A stretch of DNA of 64,000 bases from Comamonas sp. (GTDB lineage Bacteria; Pseudomonadota; Gammaproteobacteria; Burkholderiales; Burkholderiaceae_C), in NCBI GenBank assembly GCA_028690035.1, contig JAQVCA010000001.1, positions 8,410 to 72,409 of the forward strand. Reading direction: 5' to 3'. This document shows positions 3,380-24,309 of this stretch, in pieces. The translations under genes were made by a program, and so were the position numbers. Within the stretch, counting starts at the first letter, position 1, and every line of letters starts with the position of its first letter. The notes beneath the pieces were generated by a model. The model was given only the letters and a program-made list of their open reading frames with translations, was not told the origin of the DNA and ran no database searches.

Positions 3380-3595
3380 TTAGTAGGCGGCGGGCTCTTG
3401 CTCTGGGGCCGGCCTAGGTTCGGCCAGCGCCAGCAACTCTTTCCACGCTGCAATGCGGCCCCGCTTGTTGGCGGTGGCTATGGCATCCAGCGTCGGGCTA
3501 TCGTTTTGCTCACGCAGCTGGGCCACCTTCTGGGCGGCCAGCGCTTGCACGGCGTGCCAGGTGGGTGAGGTGAAATCAATAGCCGGTTTGCTCAT
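3380..3595 (-). CDS. Small phage head-module protein (Bbp19-like)
   Basis: SPTW..VQ...QLREQND...T...RGRIAAWKELL pattern, between portal and scaffold; start at 3595 follows the conserved upstream motif. Confidence 0.65.
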   Translation of the reverse strand: MSKPAIDFTSPTWHAVQALAAQKVAQLREQNDSPTLDAIATANKRGRIAAWKELLALAEPRPAPEQEPAAY

Positions 3596-3645
3596 GCCCC
3601 GCAGTGTTCCCATTTACACAGCAGGGCGCGAACCCTAGCCGGGGG
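3596..3645 (-). promoter_or_regulatory. Bipartite late-gene motif copy 1: CCCCCGGCTAGGGTTCGCGCC-N14-GGAACACTGCGGGG before ATG
   Basis: Near-identical to the element at 7831-7881 with identical 14-nt spacing. Confidence 0.65.
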
Positions 3646-5824
3646 ATGCCTCTGGCTGCACACCATCCGCCACAGGTGTTTCAATGCCCTGCAGCAAGCC
3701 AACGGCAGGATTAGCCGGTGTCAGTGGGTTGGTATTGCTGGGCAAGTCCACGCCCTGCCCTGGGCCTGCCGCCTGCGGCACGATAGGGGCGGCATCTCTG
3801 TCCTCGTAGCCAGCAGAGCGAAGCAACCCGTCTGCCGTGGTGGCCGTGGCCGGAATCTGCTCAATCACCTGGGCCGCCTGCACCGCGCCATACTGCGCCT
3901 CCACCGCCTTATTCACAGCTTCAGCCTGCACCTTGGTGGCCTGCGCTTCCAGCAGCTTGGTCTTGGCCTGTAGCGTGGGGTCTTGCCCTTGCTGCGCTTG
4001 CTGGGCCTTCTTGTCCTCGGACAGCTGGAAGTTCTTGGGATCAAGCCGCTGCCCACGGCACAGCTCGGCTGCCAGCTTGGCCGGGTCAAGCTCGTACACA
4101 GGATTGGCCGCTGCCTGCAGCAAACTCATGAGGAACTGCTGCTGCGCATCGCGCTCCACCAGCGCCGACGATGCACGCACATCGATCTGGAAGTCCCCCT
4201 TGATGCTCTCGTCCTCGTTGTAGGCCATCATCCAGTCGAAATAGCGCTGAATGTGCGGGCGCGTCATATAGTCGTCAAAGCGCTTAGCCAAACGGCGCAG
4301 CACGCTCGTGGCATTGTTGTTTTGCATCTGCATGCCGCCCAGCGTGTTGGGCGCATCACCGCGAATGCCTTGCAACATGGCTGGCATGCCCGTGGTGTCC
4401 TCGGCCATCTTGAGCGCGAAGTTGATGATGTTCATCAGCTCGCCCTGCACGCTGGTGACGGCAAAGCTTGCGAAAGCGCCACGCACATCAGATACATCGC
4501 TACTCGTCTCTGCCCGCCACACCTTGCCTGGGCGCAGCGTCCAGTTGCCATCCACCGGAGTGATGCCGTTGCCAATGACCACCTGGGGCGATGCCGACAG
4601 GCCGCTGTTGTCCATCATGGCGCGCACAGCCCCATTGAGCATGCGCTGCACGGTACGAATCTGTCGGCTGATACCCATGCCCCACGGCATACCGGGGCGG
4701 CGCTGCCAGGCCAGCACGTCATACGGGAACTCACCGCTCTCGATGGGGCTGAGCACGCACTTGACCAGGCGGTCATTGATCATCACCGCCATGGCGGGCA
4801 TCTGCTCATCCACATCATCATCCAGCGCCACGCCCATAGCCTGCAGCTGCTGGCGCATGCAGTGGCCGTGAAAAATCCACATCTCATACTCATCGTCGCT
4901 GCGCCGGTACACAGCCTCGGTGCCCTCGCGCGTCTTCGCAGGGCCTTCCCGCAGCGCGGCCAGCAGCTCTGCTTGGTCGTAGCTCTGGTCTTTGAGCATT
5001 TCCTTGAGCTGGCGCTTGCCGATGTACTCGCGCTCCCATGTGTAACTGCCGCCGTGGATGTTCTCGCCGCAGGCAGGGTCGGGGAAGAAATTCCAGAAGT
5101 CGATGCGCTTGGAGCCAGGCTTGATCTCGTCCAGCTTGATTTGCGACTTGATCTTTGTCACCGGGTCTTCGCGCGTCATGCGCACCGAGCGCATCACGGG
5201 ATACGGGCCCTTGAACACGCCTGACCCGCAGCGTGCAGCATCTTCAATCACTTGCCGCACCTCCCCATGCCAATTACTCTCCACCAGCGGGTCTTCAATG
5301 GCCTTCTGCATCTTCTTGGCTGCCTCGGCTGCCTGCTCTGCCTGCAGCTCCAGCGCCTGCTGGGCCTGCACAGGGTCATCCATCTGCATGGCCTGGGCCA
5401 GCTGCGTGAGCTGGTGCTGGCTCAGCGTAGGCAGTGGCGTGGCCTTGATCTCCCAAGCCCGGTCATCCGTGGGCAGCAGCATGTCAGACACCCGCGCACT
5501 GGCCGCATCCACATAGGGGCGGGTGATGTTCAGGAAGACCACCGAGCGTGTCGCTTGCTCGCTCTTGCGCTCGTTGCCCAGCACGGCCTTGGATTTGCTG
5601 CGGTAGAGCATGTTGGACGTTTGAAAAGCCCGGTTGGCATCGTCAATGCCTTGGTAGTGCTCTTCGTCCTCGGTCCACTCCTCCTCGATGCCCGAGCCCG
5701 CGCGACCAGCGATGGCTTCGCGGCGCTTGGCCAGCAGGTTTTGCAGCAGCACCTGGCGGTCGTCAAAGGCAGGTGTGTCGTCGTTGTGGGGCTGCAAGCC
5801 CCCTTGGTTGAAGGTTGCTTGCAT
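3635..5824 (-). CDS. Portal protein
   Basis: 729 aa directly after TerL; P22/podovirus-like portal size; FFPDP and GEFPY..WQRRPG.PWG.G motifs. Confidence 0.85.
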   Translation of the reverse strand: MQATFNQGGLQPHNDDTPAFDDRQVLLQNLLAKRREAIAGRAGSGIEEEWTEDEEHYQGIDDANRAFQTSNMLYRSKSKAVLGNERKSEQATRSVVFLNITRPYVDAASARVSDMLLPTDDRAWEIKATPLPTLSQHQLTQLAQAMQMDDPVQAQQALELQAEQAAEAAKKMQKAIEDPLVESNWHGEVRQVIEDAARCGSGVFKGPYPVMRSVRMTREDPVTKIKSQIKLDEIKPGSKRIDFWNFFPDPACGENIHGGSYTWEREYIGKRQLKEMLKDQSYDQAELLAALREGPAKTREGTEAVYRRSDDEYEMWIFHGHCMRQQLQAMGVALDDDVDEQMPAMAVMINDRLVKCVLSPIESGEFPYDVLAWQRRPGMPWGMGISRQIRTVQRMLNGAVRAMMDNSGLSASPQVVIGNGITPVDGNWTLRPGKVWRAETSSDVSDVRGAFASFAVTSVQGELMNIINFALKMAEDTTGMPAMLQGIRGDAPNTLGGMQMQNNNATSVLRRLAKRFDDYMTRPHIQRYFDWMMAYNEDESIKGDFQIDVRASSALVERDAQQQFLMSLLQAAANPVYELDPAKLAAELCRGQRLDPKNFQLSEDKKAQQAQQGQDPTLQAKTKLLEAQATKVQAEAVNKAVEAQYGAVQAAQVIEQIPATATTADGLLRSAGYEDRDAAPIVPQAAGPGQGVDLPSNTNPLTPANPAVGLLQGIETPVADGVQPEASPG

Positions 5825-5825
5825 G

Positions 5826-7136
5826 TCAGTACCCGATCTCGCGGTCTAAAGGTGTCCAATTGCCACTTGCCTGCACCACAGGCTGTGCTTGCTGGGCACG
5901 GTACATGTGCTCCACAGACATCCCCACATAGCGGAATGCGTCAGCACCGTGGCTGTATTCGTCGTGCAGCGGAGCATTGCCCTCGCCTGCCTTATTCAAA
6001 GCCCGCTGGTAGCGCTTCAGGCACTCCAGCAGCCGCGCAGTCTTGTTGGCGTCAAAGTAGCACCGGGGAAATGCCATACGCGCCAGCTTGATGCCCTCTT
6101 CCACGCCCAGTGCTGCATTGCACCGTACCTGACGGCGACCCAGCTGCTTGAGCCGCTGCTCTGTGCTCATGCCCGTTTGAAAATTGCCGTTCTTGCCGTC
6201 GTGCGGCAGATAGTCCCAGCCCCAGCGATATGGGCGCTTCTCCAGCTGCGCCACGTACCAATCCAGCGTTCGATGGCTATCCTCAAGGTAGTCAATGACC
6301 CGTACATCCTGCGCGCTGCCGACCTGCACCATGACAATGGCCATGGCATCGTTCCAGCCCAAGTCCCAGACGGTGTGCACCGGCAAGCGTGGGTCGTAGG
6401 GCACTTTGCACGCGCGGCCATCGGCATACAGTGCTTCCACTTCGTAGCGATAGATAGCGCCAGCAGCAACCTTTCTGGCCTTGCCTTCCCAGATGTGCTC
6501 GAAGTCATCCTTGCTCATACTCCGCTTGGCTTTCTTGCGCTCTTCGTCCAGTACCGATGGAAACCAGGGGTTGTCGCGCCAGTTGATTTCCACAACCCAG
6601 GTATCTGGACTGGGCGAAGCGATAAAGCGTTGGTACGTCTCATCGGATTCCATGTCCGGGTTGAGCGTCAGCCAAATCTCAGAACCTTCTTTTCGGATCG
6701 TGGGAATCAGCACATCCCAGCTCTTCTTGCTCACGCCATGGGCTTCTTCTACCCAAACGATGTCGCAGCCCTCAAAGGACTTGATGGAGTCCACGGTATG
6801 GGACTGCAAGCCAGCGAACAGGAAAAGCGAGCCATTGACACCACGAATCTCTGTTTCCAGCACTTCAAAGAATGCCCCAAGGCCCAAGCGTGCGATTTGG
6901 TCGGTCAAAAGCTGGTGCACCGACTGCTTGATCGACTTCTGCACCTCACGAGCACAGAGCACGCGCAGTGGATGCTGTGCAGCCATTGCCAGAAGCACCC
7001 CAGCCACAGTCCACGACTTACCGCCGCCGCGCCCCCCATGCATGACCTTGTATCGCTTGGGCTGCCAGATGGGCGCCAGCTTCTGCGGCACCTGCAGCAC
7101 GGGTGCATCTTGTGCATCACTCGCCTGCATCGTCAT
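5826..7136 (-). CDS. terL: Terminase large subunit (PBSX family)
   Basis: Walker A GGRGGGKS, Walker B WVEEA, LTLNP, nuclease WDLGWND and HGADAFRY. Confidence 0.93.
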   Translation of the reverse strand: MTMQASDAQDAPVLQVPQKLAPIWQPKRYKVMHGGRGGGKSWTVAGVLLAMAAQHPLRVLCAREVQKSIKQSVHQLLTDQIARLGLGAFFEVLETEIRGVNGSLFLFAGLQSHTVDSIKSFEGCDIVWVEEAHGVSKKSWDVLIPTIRKEGSEIWLTLNPDMESDETYQRFIASPSPDTWVVEINWRDNPWFPSVLDEERKKAKRSMSKDDFEHIWEGKARKVAAGAIYRYEVEALYADGRACKVPYDPRLPVHTVWDLGWNDAMAIVMVQVGSAQDVRVIDYLEDSHRTLDWYVAQLEKRPYRWGWDYLPHDGKNGNFQTGMSTEQRLKQLGRRQVRCNAALGVEEGIKLARMAFPRCYFDANKTARLLECLKRYQRALNKAGEGNAPLHDEYSHGADAFRYVGMSVEHMYRAQQAQPVVQASGNWTPLDREIGY

Positions 7137-7968: not shown

Positions 7969-8925
7969 TTAGCTGCAGTTACCCACCGTACCACCTCGGC
8001 CCTGCCAGCGGTTGAGGAAGTGCATGGCAGTGTGCATCTTGCTCAATGCTTCATCCACTTCGGTCCAGCCACTGACCAGCAGGTCGTGCAGCGTTTGTGC
8101 TGCATCGTGCAGATCTTGGCGGGCCTGGGCGGTGGGCAGGTGGTCGCTCCAGTTCAGGATATCCAAGGCGATGCTCTTGGCAACTTCAATGGTTCGGCCA
8201 TTGCGCGGGTAAGGGTTGGCCGGGTTGTAGCGGTAAGTGCCAACCGGGGGCGGCTGCATGTGCAGATCCAGACGCGGCAGTTGCAGTGCTGCCTGACTCT
8301 GGATGGCGGGTTGTGTGGATTCATCCACCAACTCCCACTGGGCAATGTGGCGGGCAATGATGGACAGGGCTTCCTCAAACTCGCTGGCTGGTATCTGGCG
8401 ATAGGGCACTTTGAAGTGCGACTTGAGTTTGCTCCAGCCCTGGCGCATTGCCTCACCGCGTCTTCCCATGGGCAAGCGCTTGACGTTGCTTTCCAGCAGG
8501 GCGCGCAGGGCAATTTGTTGGGCTTCGTTCAGAGTGTCGCCGGGCTGCGTGGTGTAGGGAGCCTTGCGCAACAGCTCTGCTTCCATCGCGTTGAAGGCGG
8601 TGATGTAGGCCAACTTCCATTGCAGCGCCTCTTTGCCGGTGAAGCCCATGGCCAGCAGCGTGAAGCCATCGCGGGTGATGCGGTAAGCTGGGTCTTTACG
8701 GGTGCGACCCATGCCCAAATCGACGTCGATTTGTATGAGCGCAAAATTGCGCTGATACCCCTCTGGCAATTCTTTCAGCAGATTCTTGATGGCGCGAAGC
8801 ACGTCCTTGTGCTGCTTGCCGAAGTGCTCCGCGATTTGCAGGCTGGTGGTGGTGATTTGACCGTCGATGATTTTGAGGTCAGGGGTTGCGATAGCAACGG
8901 ACGTGCCAGTGGTGGTGTCAGCCAT
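7969..8925 (-). CDS. rha: Rha-family regulatory protein with ORF6C-like domain (antirepressor-like)
   Basis: ITTTSLQIAEHFGKQHKDVLRAI...Y.ITRDGFTLLAMGFTGKEALQWKLAYI.AFN (Rha); WSKLKSHFKVPYRQIPASEFEEA (ORF6C-like); start MADTTTG with AAAGGAG SD. Confidence 0.88.
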   Translation of the reverse strand: MADTTTGTSVAIATPDLKIIDGQITTTSLQIAEHFGKQHKDVLRAIKNLLKELPEGYQRNFALIQIDVDLGMGRTRKDPAYRITRDGFTLLAMGFTGKEALQWKLAYITAFNAMEAELLRKAPYTTQPGDTLNEAQQIALRALLESNVKRLPMGRRGEAMRQGWSKLKSHFKVPYRQIPASEFEEALSIIARHIAQWELVDESTQPAIQSQAALQLPRLDLHMQPPPVGTYRYNPANPYPRNGRTIEVAKSIALDILNWSDHLPTAQARQDLHDAAQTLHDLLVSGWTEVDEALSKMHTAMHFLNRWQGRGGTVGNCS

Positions 8926-8933
8926 GGTTGGCT

Positions 8934-8973
8934 CCTTTGTGACAAGTTTTGAACCTGTCATACCTCCCGCCAA
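8934..8973 (-). promoter_or_regulatory. c4 target pair a2/b2 (UUGGCGG ... ACAAAGG), b2 overlapping the rha SD
   Basis: Plus-strand CCGCCAA 8967-8973 and CCTTTGT 8934-8940. Confidence 0.75.
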
Positions 8974-8987
8974 GGAGGGGTGACAGA

Positions 8988-9049
8988 CCGTGTGGGGTTG
9001 GCGGACCGGACAAAGGAACCGGCGCACCCTTGCGGGTGCCCCCACACGG
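8988..9049 (-). ncRNA. c4-like antisense RNA (P1 c4 / P4 CI type)
   Basis: 10-bp closing stem 8988-8997/9040-9049, inner hairpin 9024-9039, and single-stranded CCUUUGU and CCGCCAA complementary to two flanking target pairs. Confidence 0.8.
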
Positions 9050-9081
9050 CCCGTCGTAAACGGAGCCATGCTGCACAAATG

Positions 9082-9142
9082 AAAAAAGCCGCTACCTGAA
9101 TGGCGCGGCTTTTGCCTCTGCGCCTTTGTTGCGGGCCGCCAA
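9082..9142 (-). promoter_or_regulatory. c4 target pair a1/b1 followed by an intrinsic terminator/attenuator
   Basis: CCGCCAA 9136-9142, CCTTTGT 9123-9129; AAAAGCCGC...GCGGCTTTTTT hairpin 9082-9113. Confidence 0.72.
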
Positions 9143-9199
9143 GCCCGTGCCCTGTTTTGCAGGGACGGGCGCAGTATGCCACAACAACAACTTTTGACG

Positions 9200-9415
9200 C
9201 TACTCTTTCTCCGTAAAGCCAAGGATGACTGAGCCAAAGTATGCAGGAGCCATCCAACCAATTGCTAGCACTATGAAGAGCAGCATATCCCCTCCGCCAC
9301 AGCTTCTAGACTTCACACATGCCGTCGAAAAAATACCAATAATCGTGAGCACGATCCATATCGCAGCAGCGACGTAATACCCTTTTTGCGTTAGTTTGCT
9401 CAATTGCGGCTCCAT
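9200..9415 (-). CDS. Small two-TM membrane protein (moron)
   Basis: 71 aa, two hydrophobic helices around a C-x5-C loop; lower GC than the flanking genes. Confidence 0.6.
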   Translation of the reverse strand: MEPQLSKLTQKGYYVAAAIWIVLTIIGIFSTACVKSRSCGGGDMLLFIVLAIGWMAPAYFGSVILGFTEKE

Positions 9416-10845: not shown

Positions 10846-10957
10846 CTGTCTCATCCTCTTGCATGCCACAACTCCACGCCAGCGCCACAAGGCCGACGAA
10901 CACGGTCAATGCGCCACCGCCTATGGCGCCCAGGACAACCAACTGCCAGTCGCTCAT
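10829..10957 (-). CDS. 42-aa single-TM peptide
   Basis: ATGA overlap with the DnaC-like stop; MSDWQLVVLGAIGGGALTVFVGLVALAWSCGMQEDETDAPGN. Confidence 0.5.
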   Translation of the reverse strand: MSDWQLVVLGAIGGGALTVFVGLVALAWSCGMQEDETDAPGN

Positions 10958-11754
10958 GCGGCCACCTTCTTGCGATAGCTCTCCCAAGTGAATGGGATCA
11001 CTTGCCCTCCGTCTTCACGCAGTCGGTCCATGACCCGCTCCCCGAGGAACTCGGTCACCTCTGCCTTGGTCAAGTTGGACAAAAACAGCGTGGGCTTGCG
11101 GCGCTCGTAACGCTCATTCAGGACATCGAACATCGTGTTGCGCTCAAAATCTGAGCCAAACTGCACACCCACCTCGTCGAGGATCAGCAGGTCTGGGGCC
11201 ACAAGCGCCGCAATGGCCTGGGACTCGCTCGTCTCCGAGCCTTTGACCCAGGTGTCCTTGATCGAGCGCATAGCCCGCATCACCGTGATGAACAGCACCG
11301 TGGCATCGGTGTGGTGCATGACGTGCTTAGCGATACCGCACGCTAGGTGGGTCTTGCCGGTACCAGGGCGACCCAGGAAAACGGCGCTAAGCCCTGTGCG
11401 GCGCACTTTGTCGAAGCTGGCTGCATAGTCCTTGGCGAACTGCAAGGCCGTCTGCTGGGCGCTGTTCTGGGCAGCAAAGCTGTCGAGCGAGCGATCCAAA
11501 AAGCGCTCAGGGATACCGGCTCTGCCCAGCGTGCGGGCAATGCTCGCCTCCTTGGCGCGACGTGCAGCCTCGCGGCGCTGCTCTTCCTCCTGGCGCTCAA
11601 TCTCCTTGGCGCACTCCGGGCAGCCACTCCAGCGTTTGCCGATGAGATGGCGCGCCTGGTATTCGCCGTGCTTGGCGCAGGTGCGAGCTTCGTAGGTGGG
11701 CGCTTGGGACAGCTTGGCCCACAGGGGATGGTTGAGGGTGCCAATCGCTTGCAT
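10954..11754 (-). CDS. DnaC/IstB-like helicase loader ATPase
   Basis: C..HG...C.EC Zn site, Walker A GRPGTGKT, Walker B LLILDEVG; start overlaps the initiator stop. Confidence 0.9.
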   Translation of the reverse strand: MQAIGTLNHPLWAKLSQAPTYEARTCAKHGEYQARHLIGKRWSGCPECAKEIERQEEEQRREAARRAKEASIARTLGRAGIPERFLDRSLDSFAAQNSAQQTALQFAKDYAASFDKVRRTGLSAVFLGRPGTGKTHLACGIAKHVMHHTDATVLFITVMRAMRSIKDTWVKGSETSESQAIAALVAPDLLILDEVGVQFGSDFERNTMFDVLNERYERRKPTLFLSNLTKAEVTEFLGERVMDRLREDGGQVIPFTWESYRKKVAA

Positions 11755-12668
11755 CACACAGCCTCCACGCCATTGCCGTAGTCTTTTTCGGCAAAGTTTT
11801 CGGCCTTTGGGGCGCGCTTGCCCGCAGGCCGTGTGCCACTCCCTGCGCACGCCTTCACCAGCCATGCCCTTGCGTCGGCAGGCTGGGTGACCACCGCCTC
11901 ACGTACCGCCTCCAGCACCGTGTCGTTGCCGTGATCTCGGACCAGCTTGCCCATGAGGGTGCGAGCCTGCTGCTCGTCGATGCCCTGGCCACCCAACAGG
12001 GCAACTGCTGAGCGCCAAAGCTCCTGCTTGGCCTGCTCCTCAGGCGACTTGGTGCTTGGCGCCTGCTGCAGCTGCGGCACCGCCGCCGTACCGATAGGTA
12101 CGGAACTAATAGAAGATGAAGAAGAAGATGAAGGGGCGGGGGTTTTTTGTTCGTTAAGGGGGGGGTTATTTGCGTCTGCATGGGGGGGTATTTGTTTGCG
12201 TGGACGCCCCCCCTTTTTGCCGTGCTCTGCTCCTAAATAACCAGCACTCTTTCCTTTGTGGCCGTGCTCTGCACCCTTGTGTCCATGTGATGCACGCATG
12301 TTGCGCACCGCCTCATCTTTGACCATTCGGCGGCTATAAATAGTGCCGTCAGCCGTGCGAGAAAACACGCCAGCCTCTTCCAATTCTTTGAGGATTTTTT
12401 TCAAAAAAGTTGGAGATTCCCCGACGATTCGCGCAATCTGCTCCACCGTCATGGCTCTGCCATTGATAGACAAGTGGCCATAGCGATCGGACTCATGGGC
12501 TATGCAAAGCATCTCCATCCACAGGCCGCGCGCCGCCAGCGAGCACGCATTCAGGGATGGGTCGCGCCTCCAGTCTCCTGGATAGAACTGAAATGATGGT
12601 CGTCGAGTTGAAGCCACTTTGGGCGTTGCCTCTTCCATGGGAAACTGGTAAATTTGAGCTAAGGCCAT
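11754..12668 (-). CDS. Phage replication initiator (O-like)
   Basis: RPSFQFYPGDW..D..L..CS.AARGLW N-terminus, KGGRP linker, upstream of the DnaC-like loader; internal repeats 12158-12272. Confidence 0.8.
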   Translation of the reverse strand: MALAQIYQFPMEEATPKVASTRRPSFQFYPGDWRRDPSLNACSLAARGLWMEMLCIAHESDRYGHLSINGRAMTVEQIARIVGESPTFLKKILKELEEAGVFSRTADGTIYSRRMVKDEAVRNMRASHGHKGAEHGHKGKSAGYLGAEHGKKGGRPRKQIPPHADANNPPLNEQKTPAPSSSSSSSISSVPIGTAAVPQLQQAPSTKSPEEQAKQELWRSAVALLGGQGIDEQQARTLMGKLVRDHGNDTVLEAVREAVVTQPADARAWLVKACAGSGTRPAGKRAPKAENFAEKDYGNGVEAV

Positions 12669-14509: not shown

Positions 14510-14815
14510 TCATGCCTCCTGGGGGATAGATGCGGATGCAGTGCTGGTGGATGCTGGAGGGCAAAAGTCCAACGCAGGGCGGCCCAGTGGATGCGGCCAT
14601 GCCGCATCTGGGATGCGATACCAAGTCACATGCGGGAGAAGTTCCTCGCATGTCACAGCGCCACCAGTGGCGCGCTCGATAGATGGGCAGCGAGCACTTG
14701 GGATGGGGCGAGAGCCATCACTCCATTGACCAATCAGTTGAGGAGGGACATCCAAGTCAGATGCCAGTCTTGCCTTCCTGCCACGCTCGATAGAAGTGAA
14801 TTCGCTCAATTTCAT
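14510..14815 (-). CDS. cro: Cro-like (YdaS-family) HTH regulator
   Basis: KARLASDLDVPPQLIGQWSDGSRPIPSARCPSIERATGGAVTCEEL.P; divergent from cI. Confidence 0.88.
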   Translation of the reverse strand: MKLSEFTSIERGRKARLASDLDVPPQLIGQWSDGSRPIPSARCPSIERATGGAVTCEELLPHVTWYRIPDAAWPHPLGRPALDFCPPASTSTASASIPQEA

Positions 14816-14822
14816 GGGCATC

Positions 14823-14887
14823 ATGATAAGCGATTCGCTTATTCATATCAAGCGTGACGCTTCTTCAAATGTGTAAGCATTTCGCTT
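14823..14887. promoter_or_regulatory. OR region: PR (minus strand TTGATA-17-TATCAT) and three operators AAGC-N5-GCTT
   Basis: TAAGCGATTCGCTTA 14827-14841, AAGCGTGACGCTT 14850-14862, AAGCATTTCGCTT 14875-14887; -35 at 14846-14851, -10 at 14823-14828. Confidence 0.85.
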
Positions 14888-14898
14888 CAAATATGTAC

Positions 14899-15348
14899 AT
14901 GAAGACGATTTCAGACATCAGGCGCGAGAACTTGGATGCACTCGCTCGCCAGCTAGGCTCAGTTGACGCGGTTGCGGCAGCGTCATCGACGTCGCCTGTG
15001 TACCTGAGTCAAATCAAAAACCAGGCTTTGGACTCGAAGACAGGGAAGCCGAGGCAGATGGGGAGCGCTCTGGCGAGAAAGTTGGAAGTTGGCTGCAATA
15101 AGCCATCTGGATGGATGGATACGGATCACCAGTCGCCGCCTAACGTAGAGATAAGTTCCACAGAAATATCCCTAGGGCAGACTTTGGCGCGGCTGGGTCA
15201 GGCGCTGGAGCGTGCCAAGCCGCAGACACGCGCTGCTGTGGCCGACCTACTGAGCCGTTACGCTCAAGACCCGGCGCAGGGCAAATCCCTTGCACAAGCC
15301 ATTGAAATGCTGGTGCAGTCCGATATAGACAAAAAAGCTGACGCATGA
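14899..15348 (+). CDS. cI: CI-like repressor without an S24 peptidase domain
   Basis: IRRENL..L...GS..A.A...TSPVYLSQI......R.MG..LARKLE...KPSGWMD HTH; 149 aa; no SD before the ATG (lambda cI-like leaderless start). Confidence 0.85.
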   Translation: MKTISDIRRENLDALARQLGSVDAVAAASSTSPVYLSQIKNQALDSKTGKPRQMGSALARKLEVGCNKPSGWMDTDHQSPPNVEISSTEISLGQTLARLGQALERAKPQTRAAVADLLSRYAQDPAQGKSLAQAIEMLVQSDIDKKADA

Positions 15349-15821
15349 TCCCGCCATTGGACGAGCGCGGCTTGCTGCCGCCCGGCTGCCACCGCTGCAA
15401 AGACTGGGCTGAGCTGGAAGAAAGATTTGCCTTTAATCCCTACCGCCAGCGCCTACTAGGGCAGGCTATGCAATTCGTGCAGCATCGCTTGACCCCATTG
15501 GCCGGTGGGCTCAGACTGGTGGTCGCAGGCAGTTACTTGAGCGACAAGGCGCAGCCTGGCGACGTAGAGATGCTGGTGTCTTTGCCAATGCACAGCATTG
15601 GGCAGCACGTGGGCCTGTTGGATATGTTCGATAAAGAGGGCGGCAAGCGCAGCATCTGGACAACCCACAGAGTGGACTTTTATGTTCAGTTAGAAGGCTT
15701 TGGCGGTAACGACTTGGCCCTGTTTTTCCAGTACGTTGGAGAGAAAACCGCCGCAGACAAAGGGCTAGACGCCAAGGACAAACGCGGCACAATCGAGATC
15801 GAATCATGGACACTGCCGTAA
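15345..15821 (+). CDS. Minimal nucleotidyltransferase, Pol-beta superfamily (DUF6932-like)
   Basis: IPPLDERGLLPPG.H N-terminus; hGS-x9-D-h-E (AGSYLSDKAQPGDVEM) plus a later RVDF; ATGA overlap with cI. Confidence 0.75.
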   Translation: MIPPLDERGLLPPGCHRCKDWAELEERFAFNPYRQRLLGQAMQFVQHRLTPLAGGLRLVVAGSYLSDKAQPGDVEMLVSLPMHSIGQHVGLLDMFDKEGGKRSIWTTHRVDFYVQLEGFGGNDLALFFQYVGEKTAADKGLDAKDKRGTIEIESWTLP

Positions 15822-16795
15822 ATCACCTGCACCACCGCGCCACACTGCTGCTGCAGCAGATCGCCATGGCCATGCAGGCGCAAAGCAGCCAGGGCGTGGA
15901 CATGAGCGGCTTCATTGCAAGCTACCAGCGCAAGCTGCAAGAGCTGTACAGCGAAGAGCTGCCTCTAGCCATACTGCGCGATACCAGCGACATCATTTTG
16001 CATGTTGAAGGCCCCGCAGCACGCCACTACGCAGCAGGCAGCGGCATGGTGGCTTGGCTGTGTGGCGAGGCAGAAAAGCGTATCCGCCAGCTGGGTATGT
16101 CTGCCATCAAAACCAATGGCAGCAGCGCAGAATCGGCAGAAAGCGACTTGCGCGTGCTACTCAATGGCTTGGCTCCTGGCAGCCTGTACTTGGGTTTCTC
16201 CGTCGATTCGGCCCAGCGTATGGCGGTGCAGCAGCAAGATGCACTGGCGCTGCCTGATGGCGATGTCATGGCATCCATCCGTGGTGCGGTGCGTACCCTG
16301 CCGTTGGTGCAGCAGTTTGTGGAAGACGAATCCATCAACCCAGCCATCTCTGAGGCCATCGCTGACGCCCAAGTGCGAGACGCCTCCCTGATGGCTGCCT
16401 ACCACCTATCGCCCACCGGGCGGCGCGGCATCCACACCATAGAGATCAGCGCACCCGGCTCCCACCAGACGCCCGCCGCCTTCACCAACCGCGAGCGCGT
16501 GGTGCTGCGCGAAAGCGCCCTGCGCGCCCCCGTGATGCGCACCATGACATCAGGCACATTTGTGGGTGAACTGCGCGAGGTGGACTTGGATGCCAAACGC
16601 TTTCACCTGCGCGACGTACCAGGCATTGGCGGCATCCGCTGCGTGCTTGGCAATCTCAATGCCGACACCGCCCGCAAACTCATCGGCCATGGCGTGCGCG
16701 TCAGTGGTGAGTACGAGGCCGACGCCGACGGCAAACCTCGCCTGATGCGCGTGCAGACGGTAGAGCCATATCAAACCCAGAAATCCCTGCAATAA
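15806..16795 (+). CDS. 329-aa hypothetical protein with predicted C-terminal OB-like beta-barrel
   Basis: 16-nt overlap with the NTase; helical N-terminus, APGS motif, C-terminal GTFVGELREVDLDAKRFHL...GVRVSGEY...RLMRVQTVE strand pattern. Confidence 0.7.
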   Translation: MDTAVNHLHHRATLLLQQIAMAMQAQSSQGVDMSGFIASYQRKLQELYSEELPLAILRDTSDIILHVEGPAARHYAAGSGMVAWLCGEAEKRIRQLGMSAIKTNGSSAESAESDLRVLLNGLAPGSLYLGFSVDSAQRMAVQQQDALALPDGDVMASIRGAVRTLPLVQQFVEDESINPAISEAIADAQVRDASLMAAYHLSPTGRRGIHTIEISAPGSHQTPAAFTNRERVVLRESALRAPVMRTMTSGTFVGELREVDLDAKRFHLRDVPGIGGIRCVLGNLNADTARKLIGHGVRVSGEYEADADGKPRLMRVQTVEPYQTQKSLQ

Positions 16796-16801
16796 TTATT
16801 C

Positions 16802-17293
16802 ATGCCAGCCATTTACAGCCCCGACATTGCCAGCATGACGCCTCTTGGCGCGCAGGCTTTTGCCGCGCGCAATCTAGAGCTGCTGGCAGCCATTGAAAAC
16901 ACGCTCGACGGTCTCAGCGCGGACACTCAACTGCTGCGCGCCATCCACGACGGCTACCAAGAAATACAGCAACGCCTTGTCGGAACCAATGGCTCCATTG
17001 ATGACAGTGGTCGGATACAGGCCAAGCTGGACAAAGCCAGCGCCGCCTGCGCTCGCATTTACCAAGATGCATGCCGGCGCCACCAAAGTGCCTGCAAAGA
17101 CCCACAACTACACCCCGACGATGGCGTGGCCGATGCTTACGGCGCCTTCATCGAGGCGCTGGGCCAGCTGCACGACACCATAGAGGCTCTGCGCGAATGG
17201 ATTGCCACGCACGATGCCGTGCTGCAGCCCGCCACGGATGCCGTGTACTCCAGTGCGGACGACTTGTTTGCCGCTTTGCTACCCCAGCAGTGA
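16802..17293 (+). CDS. Putative antitoxin, all-helical, 163 aa
   Basis: GTGA overlap with the downstream toxin; C-terminal VYSSADDLFAAL resembles toxin-binding tails of RelB/DinJ-type antitoxins. Confidence 0.6.
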   Translation: MPAIYSPDIASMTPLGAQAFAARNLELLAAIENTLDGLSADTQLLRAIHDGYQEIQQRLVGTNGSIDDSGRIQAKLDKASAACARIYQDACRRHQSACKDPQLHPDDGVADAYGAFIEALGQLHDTIEALREWIATHDAVLQPATDAVYSSADDLFAALLPQQ

Positions 17294-17586
17294 CGCGCCG
17301 TATAGCAATCACCGGGTTCGCTCACTCTGAGCGCTTTGCCTCAGACCTACGCAGCGCCCCGCCAGAAGTGCAGCGCGCCACCCTGGAGGCGCTTAAGCAG
17401 CTGCAAGCCCACCCCAGCGCCAAGTCACTGCGCCTGCACACCTTAAGCGGCATGCCCAAGCCCACCATTTGGAAGATCGACGTGTACGCAAACCACGCTT
17501 GGCAAGTGACATTTGAGCTAAACGGCACCGTGGCCGAGCTCAAGCGCCTCGGCACACATAAAACCATTGACCGCGACCCGCGCTAA
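17290..17586 (+). CDS. RelE/YafQ-superfamily toxin
   Basis: GTG start; SERF..DL...P..VQ.A...AL.QL...P.AKSLRLHTLSG..WKI.V...WQVTF...LKRLGTH; 98 aa. Confidence 0.72.
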   Translation: MTRRIAITGFAHSERFASDLRSAPPEVQRATLEALKQLQAHPSAKSLRLHTLSGMPKPTIWKIDVYANHAWQVTFELNGTVAELKRLGTHKTIDRDPR

Positions 17587-17604: not shown

Positions 17605-17627
17605 AACCGCCTTCGGGCGGTTTTTTT
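17605..17627 (+). terminator. Intrinsic terminator ending the cI-cargo operon
   Basis: AACCGCC-TTCG-GGCGGTTTTTTT. Confidence 0.85.
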
Positions 17628-17632
17628 ATCCT

Positions 17633-17661
17633 TTGCAATCTATACGCAAGCTACGTACAAT
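17633..17661 (+). promoter_or_regulatory. Sigma70 promoter of higBA
   Basis: TTGCAA-17-TACAAT, with an imperfect TACG-N7-CGTA palindrome in the spacer; ATG 7 nt after the -10. Confidence 0.75.
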
Positions 17662-17668
17662 AATCCGA

Positions 17669-18007
17669 ATGAAAGCAGTCTTTGTAGAGCTACCGGCCTT
17701 TGAGCGATACCGCGCTGACTATCTGGACGACGAGAACTTTCGCAACCTGCAAGACAGCCTGATGAAAAACCCAGAAGCCGGTGATGTGATCGAAGGCACA
17801 GGCGGCCTGCGCAAAGTACGCCACGCAGACCCTAGACGGGGCAAAGGCAAGCGCGGAGGCCTGCGAGTGATCTACTACTGGTGGGATGGCAAGAACCAGT
17901 TTTGGCTCTTCACCCTCTACGACAAAGACGAACTTGATGACTTGAGCCCAAAGCAAAGGACTGCGCTCAAGACCATGCTCAAGGCAGAACTGGAGGCTCG
18001 ACAATGA
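17669..18007 (+). CDS. higB: HigB/RelE-family toxin (toxin-first TA)
   Basis: FVELPAF, NPEAGDVIEGTGGLRKVR, KGKRGGLRVIYY, LFTLYDK. Confidence 0.9.
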   Translation: MKAVFVELPAFERYRADYLDDENFRNLQDSLMKNPEAGDVIEGTGGLRKVRHADPRRGKGKRGGLRVIYYWWDGKNQFWLFTLYDKDELDDLSPKQRTALKTMLKAELEARQ

Positions 18008-18318
18008 CCAAACGCGACATCTTTGCAGAACTGACCGAAGGATTTGAAGCCTTAAAGGAACAGCGCACCGGTAAGCGCACCTTGCGCACCCATGAGGTGC
18101 AGATCAAACCAGAGGTGAAAATCGAAGCCGCTGAGATCGTTTCCCTGCGGGATAGCTTGGGCCTGTCCCGCGCTGTGTTCGCTCGCTATCTGCGCACCAA
18201 CCCTCGCACCCTAGAAAACTGGGAACAAGGCAGGGCCAAGCCTAACGCCCAGGCTGCGCTCATCATGCGCCTGGTTGAAAAGTATCCAGACACGGTCAAG
18301 CGTCTAGCTGCCGTCTAA
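18004..18318 (+). CDS. higA: HigA-family HTH antitoxin
   Basis: EIVSLRDSLGLSRAVFARYLRTNPRTLENWEQGRAKP; ATGA overlap with the toxin. Confidence 0.9.
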   Translation: MTKRDIFAELTEGFEALKEQRTGKRTLRTHEVQIKPEVKIEAAEIVSLRDSLGLSRAVFARYLRTNPRTLENWEQGRAKPNAQAALIMRLVEKYPDTVKRLAAV

Positions 18319-18323
18319 ACTGG

Positions 18324-18344
18324 CGCCCCCCAGGGCGGTTTTTT
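18324..18344 (+). terminator. Probable terminator after higA
   Basis: CGCCC-CCCA-GGGCG followed by GTTTTTT. Confidence 0.55.
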
Positions 18345-20396: not shown

Positions 20397-20472
20397 GCGT
20401 CAGTAGCTCAACGGATAGAGCACCGGTCTTCTACATCGTGGGTTGCAGGTTCGAGTCCTGCCTGACGCGCCA
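20397..20472 (+). tRNA. tRNA-Arg (anticodon UCU), phage encoded
   Basis: Cloverleaf: acceptor GCGTCAG/CTGACGC, D-arm GCTC/GAGC, loop CT-TCT-AC, T-loop TTCGAGT, encoded CCA; one mismatch in the anticodon stem. Confidence 0.93.
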
Positions 20473-21366: not shown

Positions 21367-21582
21367 ATGACTGCGCCCAAGCCGTGCCCCACCGGCAAGG
21401 TGCCACTGGATGCCCAACGTGCCCAGCAGCTGGCGCGCCGCTCCAGCGCTGCATACACACGCCCCATGACCGCCTACAAGTGCCCCGAGTGCGGCGCGTG
21501 GCACCTGGGCCAGCCCGGCAGGCTGCGCCGCCCTCTTCCTTTGATCAACAGAAACCACCAAGTGAATGTGAGGTTTTTATGA
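21367..21582 (+). CDS. Small Zn-ribbon-like phage protein
   Basis: CPTGK...AYKCPECGAWHLG motif; ATGA overlap with the recT start. Confidence 0.65.
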   Translation: MTAPKPCPTGKVPLDAQRAQQLARRSSAAYTRPMTAYKCPECGAWHLGQPGRLRRPLPLINRNHQVNVRFL

Positions 21583-22556
21583 ACGCACTAGCCACCCAGA
21601 CCAACACAGCCCTGCGCCCAGCAGGCGGCTTCGACCTGAGTCCTCAGACTTTCGAGCAGGCGCTGACCTTCTCGCAGTACCTGGCCGACAGCGACATGGT
21701 GCCCAAAGACTTTAAGGGCAAGCCCGGTAATTGCCTTATTGCCATGCAATGGGGTAGCGAGTTGGGCCTCAAGCCGCTGCAGTCCCTGCAGAACTTGGCG
21801 GTCATCAATGGCCGCCCTGCCCTTTGGGGTGATGCTGTGATTGCCCTGGTGCTCTCTAGCCCTGCATGCGAATACGTCACCGAGGACGACGACGGCCACA
21901 CCGCATACTGCCGCGTCAAGCGTAAAGGGGCGCCCGAGCAGGTGCGCACCTTCAGCATCGACGATGCACGCGCTGCGGGCTTGAGCGGCAAGCAAGGCCC
22001 GTGGACGCAATACCCAAAGCGCATGCGCCAAATGCGGGCACGTGCCTTTGCCCTGCGTGACGTTTTCCCCGATGTGCTGCGCGGCATGCCCGTTGCGGAG
22101 GAGCTGCAGGACATGGAGGCCAGCAATGCAGCTGGTGCAGGTGAAAAACACATGGGTCCTGCCGAAGTGGTGCCGCAGCAACTGCCCGAATGGCCCGCCG
22201 ACCGCTGGGCAGCAGGCCTGCCCAAGTGGCTCAAGGGCATCGCAGACGGCAAGCCGCTGGACGAAGTGCTGGCTTGGCTGCGTTCCAAGGGCGCCGTCAC
22301 ACCAGCGCAAGAACAACAGCTGCGCGCCGAGGCCGCCCGGCAGCAAGCGCCAGCACCTGCCGCACCTGCCGCACCAGCAGCAACCGGCGCGCCCACGGTG
22401 GATGCAGAGCAACTGGCCCAGCGCATGCAGGCCTGCACCGACACCGAAGCCCTGTATGAGCTGGGCAACCTGATGGATGCCGTCACCGACCCAGAGCAGA
22501 ACCGGCGTCTGGGTGAAATCTTCGATGCCAAGCTGGCAGAACTTGAAGCCGCTTAA
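21579..22556 (+). CDS. recT: RecT-family single-strand annealing protein
   Basis: VPKDFKGKPGNCLIAMQWGSELGLKPLQ, GRPALWGD, PWTQYPKRM.QMRARAFALRD.FPD. Confidence 0.88.
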   Translation: MNALATQTNTALRPAGGFDLSPQTFEQALTFSQYLADSDMVPKDFKGKPGNCLIAMQWGSELGLKPLQSLQNLAVINGRPALWGDAVIALVLSSPACEYVTEDDDGHTAYCRVKRKGAPEQVRTFSIDDARAAGLSGKQGPWTQYPKRMRQMRARAFALRDVFPDVLRGMPVAEELQDMEASNAAGAGEKHMGPAEVVPQQLPEWPADRWAAGLPKWLKGIADGKPLDEVLAWLRSKGAVTPAQEQQLRAEAARQQAPAPAAPAAPAATGAPTVDAEQLAQRMQACTDTEALYELGNLMDAVTDPEQNRRLGEIFDAKLAELEAA

Positions 22557-22614
22557 GCACCCTCGCTCACCCAAGCCCGCCCGCCAGCGGGCTTTTTTTC
22601 GCCCAGGAGGCACC

Positions 22615-24309
22615 ATGCAAATCGTAAATCTCATTCAGGGCACGCCCGAGTGGCACGCCCATCGCGCCAAGCACTTCAATGCCAGCGATGCCTCTGCCAT
22701 GATGGGCTGCAGCAGCTACAAGAGTCGCTCCCAGCTCATCAAGGAGCTGGCCACCGGCCTTGGTCAAGAGGTGGACGCATCCACACAGCGCCGCTTCGAT
22801 GACGGCCACCGCTTTGAAGCCTTGGCCCGTCCACTGGCAGAGAAAATCATTGGCGACGACGAAGGCCTCTCTGCCTGCGTTGGAGTACGAGGCAAATACT
22901 CCGCCAGTTTTGACGGCCTGACCTTCATGTACGACGTGGCCTTTGAGCACAAAACGCTCAATAAGGCCTTGCGCGCAGCAATGGTCGAAGGCTGCACCGG
23001 CGCCGATCTGCCTCTGCAGTACAAAGTCCAAATGGAGCACCAAGCCATGGTGTCGGGCTGTGATCGCATCCTGTTCATGGCCAGCGAGTGGGCCGGCGAC
23101 GGCCAGCTTGTTGAGGAACGCCACTGCTGGTACTACCCCAACCCAGAGCTGCGCGCCCAGATCATCGCGGGCTGGGAGCAGTTGGAAAAGGACGTGGCCG
23201 CCTACGACCCCACCGCCGAGCGCCCTGCCCCCGCCGTGGCCGCACCTATGGAAAGCCTGCCCGCCGTCGTGGTGCAAGTGCAAGGCCAACTTACCGTAGG
23301 CGGAAACCTACCAGCCTTCGGCGCTGCGCTGCGTGCGTTCATCGAGCGCATTCCGGCCAAGCCCAGCACCGACCAGGAATTTGCCGATGCCGACGCAGCT
23401 TGCAAAGCCCTAAAAAAAGCAGAGGATGCACTGGCCCAGGCAGAGGAAAGCGCACTGGCGCAGGTTGGCGATGTAGAGGCGATGCGCCGCATGGTTGCCG
23501 ATCTCAAAGCCCTGGCCCGCGCCACACGCTTGGCTACTGAAAAGCTGGTCAAGGCTGAAAAAGAAGCCCGGCGCGTTGAAATCGTCACCAACGCAAAGAT
23601 GGCGTTCAACACCCATGTGCAGCGCCTGGAGGTGGAACTGAAAGGCATCCGCCTGCAGATTGCACCGCCTGACTTCGCCGGGGCCATCAAGGGCTTGAGC
23701 AGCGTATCCAGCATGGAAGAGAAACTCACCGCAGCGCTGCTAGAGGGCAAGGCCCAGGCCAACACCCTTGCCAGCCGCGTTGCCGATAACCTGCGCATGC
23801 TGGACAGTGTGAGTGAATACGCCTTCCTCTTTCCTGACCGCCAAGACTTGGCCAACAAGGACAGCGAAGTGCTGGAACTGCTGATCCACAAGCGCGTGGC
23901 AGATCACCAGGCCGCCGAAGCCGCCCGCCTGGAAGCGGAGCGCGAGCGCATCCGCGCCGAGGAAGCGGCCAAGCTGCACGCCCAGGCCGCCATCGAAGCG
24001 GCAGCAAAAACCGAAGCACCCAGCGCACAGCCTGAGCCGGTTGCAGAAGCAAAAGCGCCTGAAACCGTTGTCCAGCAAGCGCAGGCAGCTCCTGCAAATG
24101 AAGCAGCGGACGACGGTGACACCCTCACCCTGGGCCAGATCAACAGCCTGATTGCACCGCTCAAGGTGGATGCCGCAGGCCTAGCAGAGCTGGGCTTCGA
24201 GGCACGCAAGGTGGAGAAATCCACGGCCAAGCACTACCGCACCAGCGACCTTCCGGCCATCGTTCAAACCCTGGTCACCCACCTGCAGGGCGTTCTCGCC
24301 ACTGCATAA
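22615..24309 (+). CDS. YqaJ-like viral exonuclease with long coiled-coil C-terminus
   Basis: QGTPEWHAHRA..FNASDA, GH.FE, SASFDGL, FEHK, Q.EHQ..VSG; AGGAGG SD. Confidence 0.88.
   Translation: MQIVNLIQGTPEWHAHRAKHFNASDASAMMGCSSYKSRSQLIKELATGLGQEVDASTQRRFDDGHRFEALARPLAEKIIGDDEGLSACVGVRGKYSASFDGLTFMYDVAFEHKTLNKALRAAMVEGCTGADLPLQYKVQMEHQAMVSGCDRILFMASEWAGDGQLVEERHCWYYPNPELRAQIIAGWEQLEKDVAAYDPTAERPAPAVAAPMESLPAVVVQVQGQLTVGGNLPAFGAALRAFIERIPAKPSTDQEFADADAACKALKKAEDALAQAEESALAQVGDVEAMRRMVADLKALARATRLATEKLVKAEKEARRVEIVTNAKMAFNTHVQRLEVELKGIRLQIAPPDFAGAIKGLSSVSSMEEKLTAALLEGKAQANTLASRVADNLRMLDSVSEYAFLFPDRQDLANKDSEVLELLIHKRVADHQAAEAARLEAERERIRAEEAAKLHAQAAIEAAAKTEAPSAQPEPVAEAKAPETVVQQAQAAPANEAADDGDTLTLGQINSLIAPLKVDAAGLAELGFEARKVEKSTAKHYRTSDLPAIVQTLVTHLQGVLATA

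Follow-up and report, generated by a model that had tools for sequence, protein, structure and literature searches.

Two overlapping genes in a 64,000-nucleotide (nt) stretch of DNA from Comamonas sp. (GenBank assembly GCA_028690035.1, contig JAQVCA010000001.1, positions 8,410 to 72,409; the whole stretch is called the window here) raise the question of how toxin-antitoxin (TA) pairs without an autorepressor are regulated, and of what a helical bundle does in an antitoxin. The known partners of RelE- and YafQ-type toxins are antitoxins of the ribbon-helix-helix (RHH), Phd, helix-turn-helix (HTH), AbrB or MqsA type. An earlier reading of the same DNA, hereafter the original prediction, had proposed a RelE/YafQ-like toxin, encoded by a gene that we call T, together with an atypical long helical antitoxin, A, which was said to show no HTH or RHH pattern, to bind the toxin through its C-terminal tail and to represent a new antitoxin class with a sensor or lability domain. 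We read A and T as a type II TA module in which the YafQ-type T is neutralised by A and which resides, as a cassette, in the immunity region of a Comamonas-like prophage; we put the probability of this reading at roughly three in four.

The predicted toxin and the tail of its antitoxin

The two genes (Table 1) are joined by a GTGA overlap, in which the GTG start codon of T runs into the TGA stop codon of A. The mechanical list of open reading frames (ORFs) represents the frame of T solely by an ATG-started ORF of 171 amino acids (aa; 17071-17586), so that an ATG-based track would miss or miscall the gene; both A and the GTG-started, toxin-like ORF of 98 aa that had been pointed out on these grounds proved to have exactly the coordinates given for them. 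The GTG start is supported by 41 homologues of T, 91-104 aa in length, which align from residue 1. At 90% identity the T family comprises 85 clusters and the A family 60. A and T are real, conserved genes. That T might be a chance ORF was considered and ruled out by the conservation of the family and the confident fold described below.

No match to the window T was found in Pfam, where YafQ_toxin failed to appear even at E <= 1, or in NCBIfam, PADLOC or, by sequence, the PDB, and its match in PHROGs to a family called 'toxin of TA system' is not significant (E 0.085). The family of T is clear nonetheless. Among the 41 relatives, 16 match PF15738 YafQ_toxin weakly (best E 9.5e-5) and four match ParE_toxin weakly; several members of the T family carry the name YafQ in Joint Genome Institute (JGI) annotation; the best PDB sequence matches of the T-family profile are HigB and YafQ, the latter chain at E 1.4. 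An AlphaFold2 model built on the family alignment (predicted local distance difference test, pLDDT, 84; predicted template modelling score, pTM, 0.75) has the beta-alpha-alpha-beta4 order of the RelE fold, the small alpha/beta, microbial-RNase-like fold that marks the RelE/ParE superfamily, and its top Foldseek match in the PDB is E. coli YafQ (4q2u; E 2.8e-5, template modelling (TM) score 0.70/0.74, root-mean-square deviation 2.3 A). Below it in the list come HP0894, archaeal and bacterial RelE, YoeB and HigB; all 22 matches at E <= 1e-3 are RelE-superfamily toxins, and ParDE structures stand far lower in the list, at ranks 42-50. The assignment of T as RelE/YafQ-like was thus confirmed by the fold match to YafQ and by the weak YafQ_toxin matches in 16 relatives.

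Conservation of individual residues, judged on an alignment that took in YafQ itself and relatives at 26-37% identity, agrees in part with this assignment. Fourteen positions are invariant in the T-family alignment. His90 of T (17557-17559), which is invariant, aligns to YafQ His87, and the nearly invariant His50 (17437-17439) and Arg86 align to YafQ His50 and Arg83. In YafQ, H87A abolishes messenger RNA (mRNA) cleavage and H50A reduces it strongly, with further contributions from H63, D67 and the positioning residue F91 (PMC4652777). His50 and His90 are therefore the predicted catalytic pair of T. T is also basic, with an isoelectric point (pI) of 10.3 in the window and a family median of 10.0. 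In our view T belongs to the RelE superfamily as a diverged, YafQ-like protein and is probably an active ribosome-dependent mRNA-cleaving enzyme.

A second link to YafQ lies at the other end of the pair, in the C-terminus of A, which reads YSSADDLFAALLP(QQ). The E. coli DinJ sequence used for comparison, verified as identical to PDB chain 4q2u_A, ends in ...AKDADDLFDKLGI, and hhalign aligned A residues 149-161 to DinJ 74-86 with P 7e-4. With a position-specific scoring matrix (PSSM) derived from 37 A-family tails, DinJ 74-86 scores 15.3 bits, a value reached by none of 400,000 random 13-mers and by 16 of 179,798 13-mers taken from ORF pieces of the window and related loci; the number of ORF C-termini that reach it is likewise 16, and these are presumably the A-family genes of the loci. 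The match was seen only by direct hhalign and PSSM comparison, a HMMER profile of the tail alone having failed to retrieve DinJ, and no similarity of A to DinJ or RelB was detected outside the 13 residues. DinJ cut by as few as nine C-terminal residues (DinJ delta 77-86) loses both YafQ suppression and complex formation (PMC12301738). A toxin-binding role of this tail thus has a tested precedent, and one that involves the toxin structurally closest to T. The A tail, which by sequence match corresponds to the C-terminal toxin-neutralising segment of RelB and DinJ, is likely the toxin-binding element, in agreement with the role first proposed for it.

Several observations weigh against reading the pair as a YafQ-type toxin with a DinJ-type tail. 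The window T does not reach the curated PF15738 threshold, and its family fails to conserve three of the five residues important for YafQ function, the aligned positions holding Tyr, Phe or His for H63, Ala or Ser for D67, and Ile, Leu or Val for F91; for this reason we describe T as YafQ-like rather than as a certified Pfam YafQ member. Glu replaces His50 in one distant relative. The match to DinJ spans just 13 residues, and the tail has diverged in some pairs (L005, ...AEVLSDIRASRH; L numbers denote the related loci). Finally, the RelE fold also covers the gyrase-poisoning ParE toxins. T could on these grounds be a ParE-like toxin without nuclease activity (a gyrase poison, for example) or an inactive RelE-fold protein, to which A would be a partner for some other purpose, and the fold common to both kinds of toxin, the four weak ParE_toxin matches, the ParDE structures in the fold list and the loss of three YafQ residues all speak for this. 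We nevertheless think it quite improbable, because the top 41 fold matches are mRNA-cleaving enzymes, with the exception of two unassigned entries, a YoeB/ParE toxin and Txp40, and have TM scores better than those of ParE, and because the histidines that correspond to His50 and His87, the residues responsible for the chemistry in YafQ, are the most conserved in the T family.

The helical bundle of A

Searches of Pfam, NCBIfam, PADLOC and PHROGs gave no family match for A. No HTH, RHH, AbrB or Phd signature was seen in these scans, and neither A nor any of 90 relatives matched RHH or RelB. The AlphaFold2 model of A (mean pLDDT 86.7, pTM 0.71) contains no beta strand. It consists of a three-helix bundle, most of it above pLDDT 90, followed by a low-confidence linker (residues 142-151) and a short helix (152-159) within the tail; the N-terminal RHH domain that characterises RelB and DinJ is absent. 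The scans and the all-helical model thus agree with the earlier view of A as a protein without HTH or RHH. Conserved motifs lie at the start of helix 1 (AARNLxLLxAIExT), before helix 3 (DDGVxDAY), at the end of helix 3 (LHDxIExLREWIxxHDA) and in the C-terminal tail.

A structure search of the antitoxin, which the original prediction had suggested, was run against the PDB and BFVD and gave generic helical bundles only, with no fold match better than E 0.15 and no known antitoxin among them. By sequence, A itself matched no solved structure, and a PDB search with the A profile returned coiled-coil noise, the best match being the VP35 oligomerisation domain (E 0.007). DUF7432 was considered as the family of A and not accepted, as it matches weakly in 10 of 37 close relatives (best E 3.3e-4) and in only one of 53 distant ones. 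The proposal of a new antitoxin class stands in part: the helical domain lies outside every annotated family, and 'new antitoxin architecture' is a fair description of A, whereas a sensor or lability role of the bundle found no support.

A further property of the bundle is its uniform charge. All 90 relatives of A are strongly acidic (median pI 4.6-4.7), and the net charge of the bundle across them has a median of -11 and ranges from -4 to -17, never being positive, which argues against a role in DNA binding. Such a bundle fits either a direct electrostatic cover of the basic toxin or a plain scaffold that does not bind DNA.

A as a DNA-binding repressor was rejected on charge and fold. A variant of that idea, in which the bundle would be a DNA- or operator-binding domain of a new kind and the pair a classical autoregulated TA operon, draws on the fact that most type II antitoxins autoregulate and on an inverted repeat, CCTAATAG-N5-CTATTAGG, upstream of A in L001. 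We hold it to be very improbable: besides the acidity of the bundle in 90 of 90 relatives and the lack of any HTH, RHH, AbrB or Phd signature, conservation in the upstream regions compared is limited to about 15 nt without a shared palindrome, and the gap between A and the gene before it in the window is only 6 nt. With no DNA-binding domain in A, and apparently no conserved operator before it, the pair is probably not classically autoregulated.

Pairing, mobility and expression

When 1.84 billion representative proteins were scanned in full with HMMER, 500 clusters at 50% identity fell into the A family, 342 of them at E <= 1e-10. Nearly all of the 500 have a single domain and a length of 160-170 aa. 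The members with an organism name, which belong to Alicycliphilus, Comamonas, Ottowia, Limnohabitans, Rhodoferax, Burkholderia gladioli, Paraburkholderia, Cupriavidus, Massilia and Pseudoduganella, span the order Burkholderiales. The family is annotated as hypothetical in every source, the one exception being a metagenome protein with the JGI label cytochrome c556, evidently a wrong one. A tblastn search of A against annotated phage and plasmid collections gave no match, and the scan for related loci found five with a close A alignment.

A homologue of T lies directly 3' of A in the window and in 18 of 19 fetched loci; the locus outside this count, L015, is a 1.4-kb contig encoding a 251-aa SLBB-domain protein to which the A match is partial and whose downstream side was unchecked. 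A and T either overlap by 4 nt (GTGA or TTGA) or lie 2-21 nt apart, and the pairing persists at about 26-33% identity in A (L005, L013, L014, L016-L019). The surroundings vary. The pair occupies prophage repressor regions in the window, in L001/L002 (behind an S24 repressor) and in L016/L017 (behind an HTH_3 repressor), and is found near phage morphogenesis or ParB genes (L009, L010), in an integrase island (L005), in a Mob_Pre island (L003), in a cluster with RHH-ParE and HicAB (L007) and among housekeeping genes at plain chromosomal sites (L011, L012). With neighbours that change from locus to locus while the pair persists, A and T behave as an autonomous, mobile two-gene module. Small, adjacent, co-oriented and coupled genes that move together are what characterises a type II TA system.

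The toxin gene appears to be missed systematically in annotation. In the complete genomes of Cupriavidus gilardii (L016/L017, 4486-4767) and Burkholderia gladioli (L018, 4486-4767) it is not called, yet both carry an intact 93-aa ORF with a TTG start 2 nt after the antitoxin stop codon; a TTG or GTG start codon is the reason why the T homologue is often overlooked. Damage to the toxin gene is seen in the closest relative of the window pair, from an uncultured Comamonas metagenome-assembled genome (MAG; L008), where A is 95% identical and intact and T is broken (3489-3765): its sequence is replaced after residue 80 (…FELNGTMIEHRRRFRRK, then a stop codon), with loss of Arg86 and His90. The same junction recurs at window position 17539 in a contig from a wastewater metatranscriptome (run X25). 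Decay of the toxin alone, as in L008, is expected if T is harmful when unopposed.

As a separate observation, in the Alicycliphilus prophage that carries A and T (L001, 7300-9010), bAvd and RVT_1 reverse transcriptase genes lie about 2 kb downstream of the pair and resemble a diversity-generating retroelement.

The window is a prophage (Table 1). Behind the CI-like repressor gene, tightly packed on the same strand, follow the DUF6932 gene, the 329-aa gene, A, T, a terminator and a second TA pair, and this position behind cI places A and T for expression in lysogens. Hairpins comparable to the terminator-like one of the window stand 3' of T in L001 and L007.

Table 1. Features of the A-T locus and of the surrounding prophage (window positions).
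Feature	Position	Strand	Remark
Extended -10-like element TGCAATAAT	16788..16796	+	5 nt before A ATG; candidate internal promoter
Antitoxin gene A	16802..17293	+	ATG start, 163 aa; ends ...VYSSADDLFAALLPQQ
Three-helix bundle of A, residues 14-141	16841..17224	+	helices 14-59, 71-99, 109-141; net charge -8
DinJ-like tail YSSADDLFAALLP, A residues 149-161	17246..17284	+	holds predicted toxin-binding helix 152-159
Toxin gene T	17290..17586	+	98 aa, GTG start; RelE/YafQ fold
Terminator-like hairpin AACCGCCTTCGGGCGGTT, then T-run	17605..17632	+	closes transcription unit of A and T
Promoter-like site for next gene pair	17632-17661	+	separate from A-T unit
Second TA toxin, RelE/HigB-like	17669-18007	+	PF06296 E 5.7e-5; phrog_5869 E 1.5e-30
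Second TA antitoxin, MqsA-family/HTH_3	18004-18318	+	TIGR03830 E 1.9e-10
Portal	3635-5824	-	
Large terminase	5826-7136	-	
Rha	7969-9261	-	
DnaC/IstB-like loader	10954-11865	-	
Cro/YdaS-like	14510-14824	-	
CI-like repressor	14854-15348	+	
DUF6932 gene	15345-15821	+	weak DNA_pol_B_palm and PADLOC PDC-M63A matches
329-aa unknown	15806-16795	+	no match anywhere
tRNA-Arg(TCT)	20397-20472	+	between immunity/moron region and RecT-YqaJ recombination genes
RecT	21384-22556	+	
YqaJ	22477-24309	+	

How A itself is started is a separate matter. No Shine-Dalgarno sequence precedes its ATG, which lies 6 nt after the stop codon of the 329-aa ORF. The extended -10-like element that had been noted before this ATG is present; the window contains TGCAATAAT a single time, with 0.77 occurrences expected, and, its count not being above chance, the motif alone is no evidence. 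Its position is echoed in the unrelated contexts of L001 and L009, where TGCTACAGT stands 10 nt before an ATG without Shine-Dalgarno sequence. When the upstream regions of five loci were aligned, homology between unrelated contexts was found to start at the -10-like element, and alternative contexts in metatranscriptome contigs part from the window at about 16770-16775. These observations fit a cassette equipped with an extended -10 element of its own and a very short or absent leader. A leaderless start of A is plausible in this clade. Against extending it to the family stand the ordinary Shine-Dalgarno sequences in the A relatives of L003, L005, L007 and L013, the assembled metatranscriptome contigs that cross the 16795-16802 junction, which are unable to place the 5' end, and the first 10-11 residues of A, which are weakly conserved and poorly modelled, some homologues having their start called at the counterpart of Met11 (152 aa). 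In the Ottowia MAG of L010 (about 2905-2995), an ORF of 18 codons begins 9 nt after TGCTACAGT and stops 2 nt short of the antitoxin ATG; it may be a small leaderless upstream ORF.

The recurrence of A and T beside prophage repressors, in the lysogen-expressed part of the prophage (the window, L001/L002 and L016/L017), also bears on an alternative in which the pair would be a sensor-antitoxin defence system. The bundle of A would then recognise a phage product or be degraded on infection, and the released T would cause abortive infection; in a related reading, the bundle would be a dedicated trigger-sensing or ribosome- or ribosomal RNA (rRNA)-mimicking domain, with the DinJ tail grafted onto it in a phage-activated abortive infection system, and A would stand for a new class of sensor antitoxin. 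The neighbourhood of another TA pair and of a DUF6932 gene that matches a PADLOC candidate weakly, together with strongly conserved surface-type motifs of the bundle that lack an explanation, would be in keeping with such a role. Against it, no PADLOC model matches A or T, the fold searches in the PDB and BFVD gave no likeness of A to any known sensor domain, many copies of the pair lie at ordinary chromosomal sites, and nothing computed separates sensing from plain scaffolding. We consider both the sensor system and the dedicated trigger or mimicry domain unlikely, and prefer the prophage-borne type II module.

Two further observations concern the neighbours of the pair. Directly behind cI, the DUF6932 gene and the 329-aa gene overlap (15345-16795) and may be another lysogen-expressed two-gene system; no exact-sequence record of the 329-aa protein was found elsewhere. 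The second TA pair is arranged toxin-first, with its own promoter-like site and a terminator (18324-18337). In wastewater RNA-type runs X26 and X28, contigs carry an in-frame deletion of 237 nt (window 17762-17998), by which most of the toxin gene of this second pair is gone and its antitoxin gene is kept.

Proposed mechanism and relation to known systems

From the genes, fold, conserved residues, tail match, charge, pairing and genomic context we infer a course of expression, neutralisation and toxicity for the type II module, with a binding mode, a form of regulation and a biological role attached to it. First, expression in lysogens would be likely with the cI operon, from the short extended -10 promoter of the cassette, or from both, and translation of T would be coupled to that of A through the GTGA overlap. 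Second, A would neutralise T by direct binding, with the helix ADDLFAAL (152-159) docking on T much as the ten C-terminal residues of DinJ do on YafQ; the acidic bundle would probably add contacts to the basic, rRNA-binding face of T, or oligomerise the complex or hold it together. Third, free T would most likely enter the ribosomal A site and cut mRNA, with His90 (YafQ His87) as general acid and His50 as general base. Finally, should the supply of A stop, through loss of the prophage or through shut-off of host and prophage transcription by an incoming phage, T would be freed and translation would halt, which would stabilise the prophage and could abort infection. Given its recurrent position beside prophage repressors, the pair is a reasonable candidate for prophage stabilisation or for the exclusion of other phages.

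The A-T pair should be of moderate interest to specialists in TA systems and phage defence, as A is a widespread partner of RelE/YafQ toxins of another kind in Burkholderiales. It also has a practical consequence for annotation, where a gap exists: the antitoxin is 'hypothetical' everywhere and the toxin gene is often uncalled. Large surveys such as NetFlax contain numerous antitoxin nodes without a name, some of which partner RelE/ParE-fold toxins (PMC10440598), and the A family may be present, nameless, among them.

Among known systems, HigB-HigA, RelE-RelB, YoeB-YefM and MqsR-MqsA share with A-T the combination of a RelE-fold toxin, matched by the fold of T at E 1e-4 to about 4e-3, and a small linked protein. 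The RelE-superfamily toxins of these pairs are ribosome-dependent ribonucleases (RNases), each neutralised by its tightly linked partner. Their antitoxins HigA, RelB, YefM and MqsA carry HTH, RHH, Phd or zinc-ribbon-plus-HTH domains, whereas A has none of these.

A different resemblance links A to PaaA2-ParE2 (with PaaR2) and epsilon-zeta (with omega), in which the antitoxin is likewise all-helical and without a DNA-binding domain, another protein or promoter takes care of regulation and, in the case of PaaA2-ParE2, the system is prophage-borne as A-T is. Antitoxins without a DNA-binding domain are thus known, and epsilon and the C-terminal domain of PezA are three-helix bundles (PMC4803016). 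A shows no sequence or fold match to PaaA2, epsilon or PezA among its top 50 structural matches (best E 0.15), T is a predicted YafQ-like RNase rather than a zeta kinase or ParE, and in the loci examined no dedicated third regulator gene accompanies A and T. Neither the likeness of bundle nor the zeta/PezT kinase partner that would place A with the epsilon/PezA type is therefore found.

The nearest known system to A-T is DinJ-YafQ of E. coli (4q2u, 4ml0). In both, the antitoxin gene comes first and is followed by that of a small, basic RelE-fold toxin, YafQ being the best structural match of T; the equivalents of His50, Arg83 and His87 are kept in T; and A ends in the ...A-D-D-L-F-x-x-L... motif that DinJ needs to suppress YafQ. 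The two systems differ in that T is about 18% identical to YafQ and does without H63, D67 and F91, and in that A has an acidic three-helix bundle of 128 residues in place of the RHH domain of DinJ. This relationship points to modular evolution, in which the short DinJ-type binding tail persists and an acidic helical bundle has taken the place of the DNA-binding domain.

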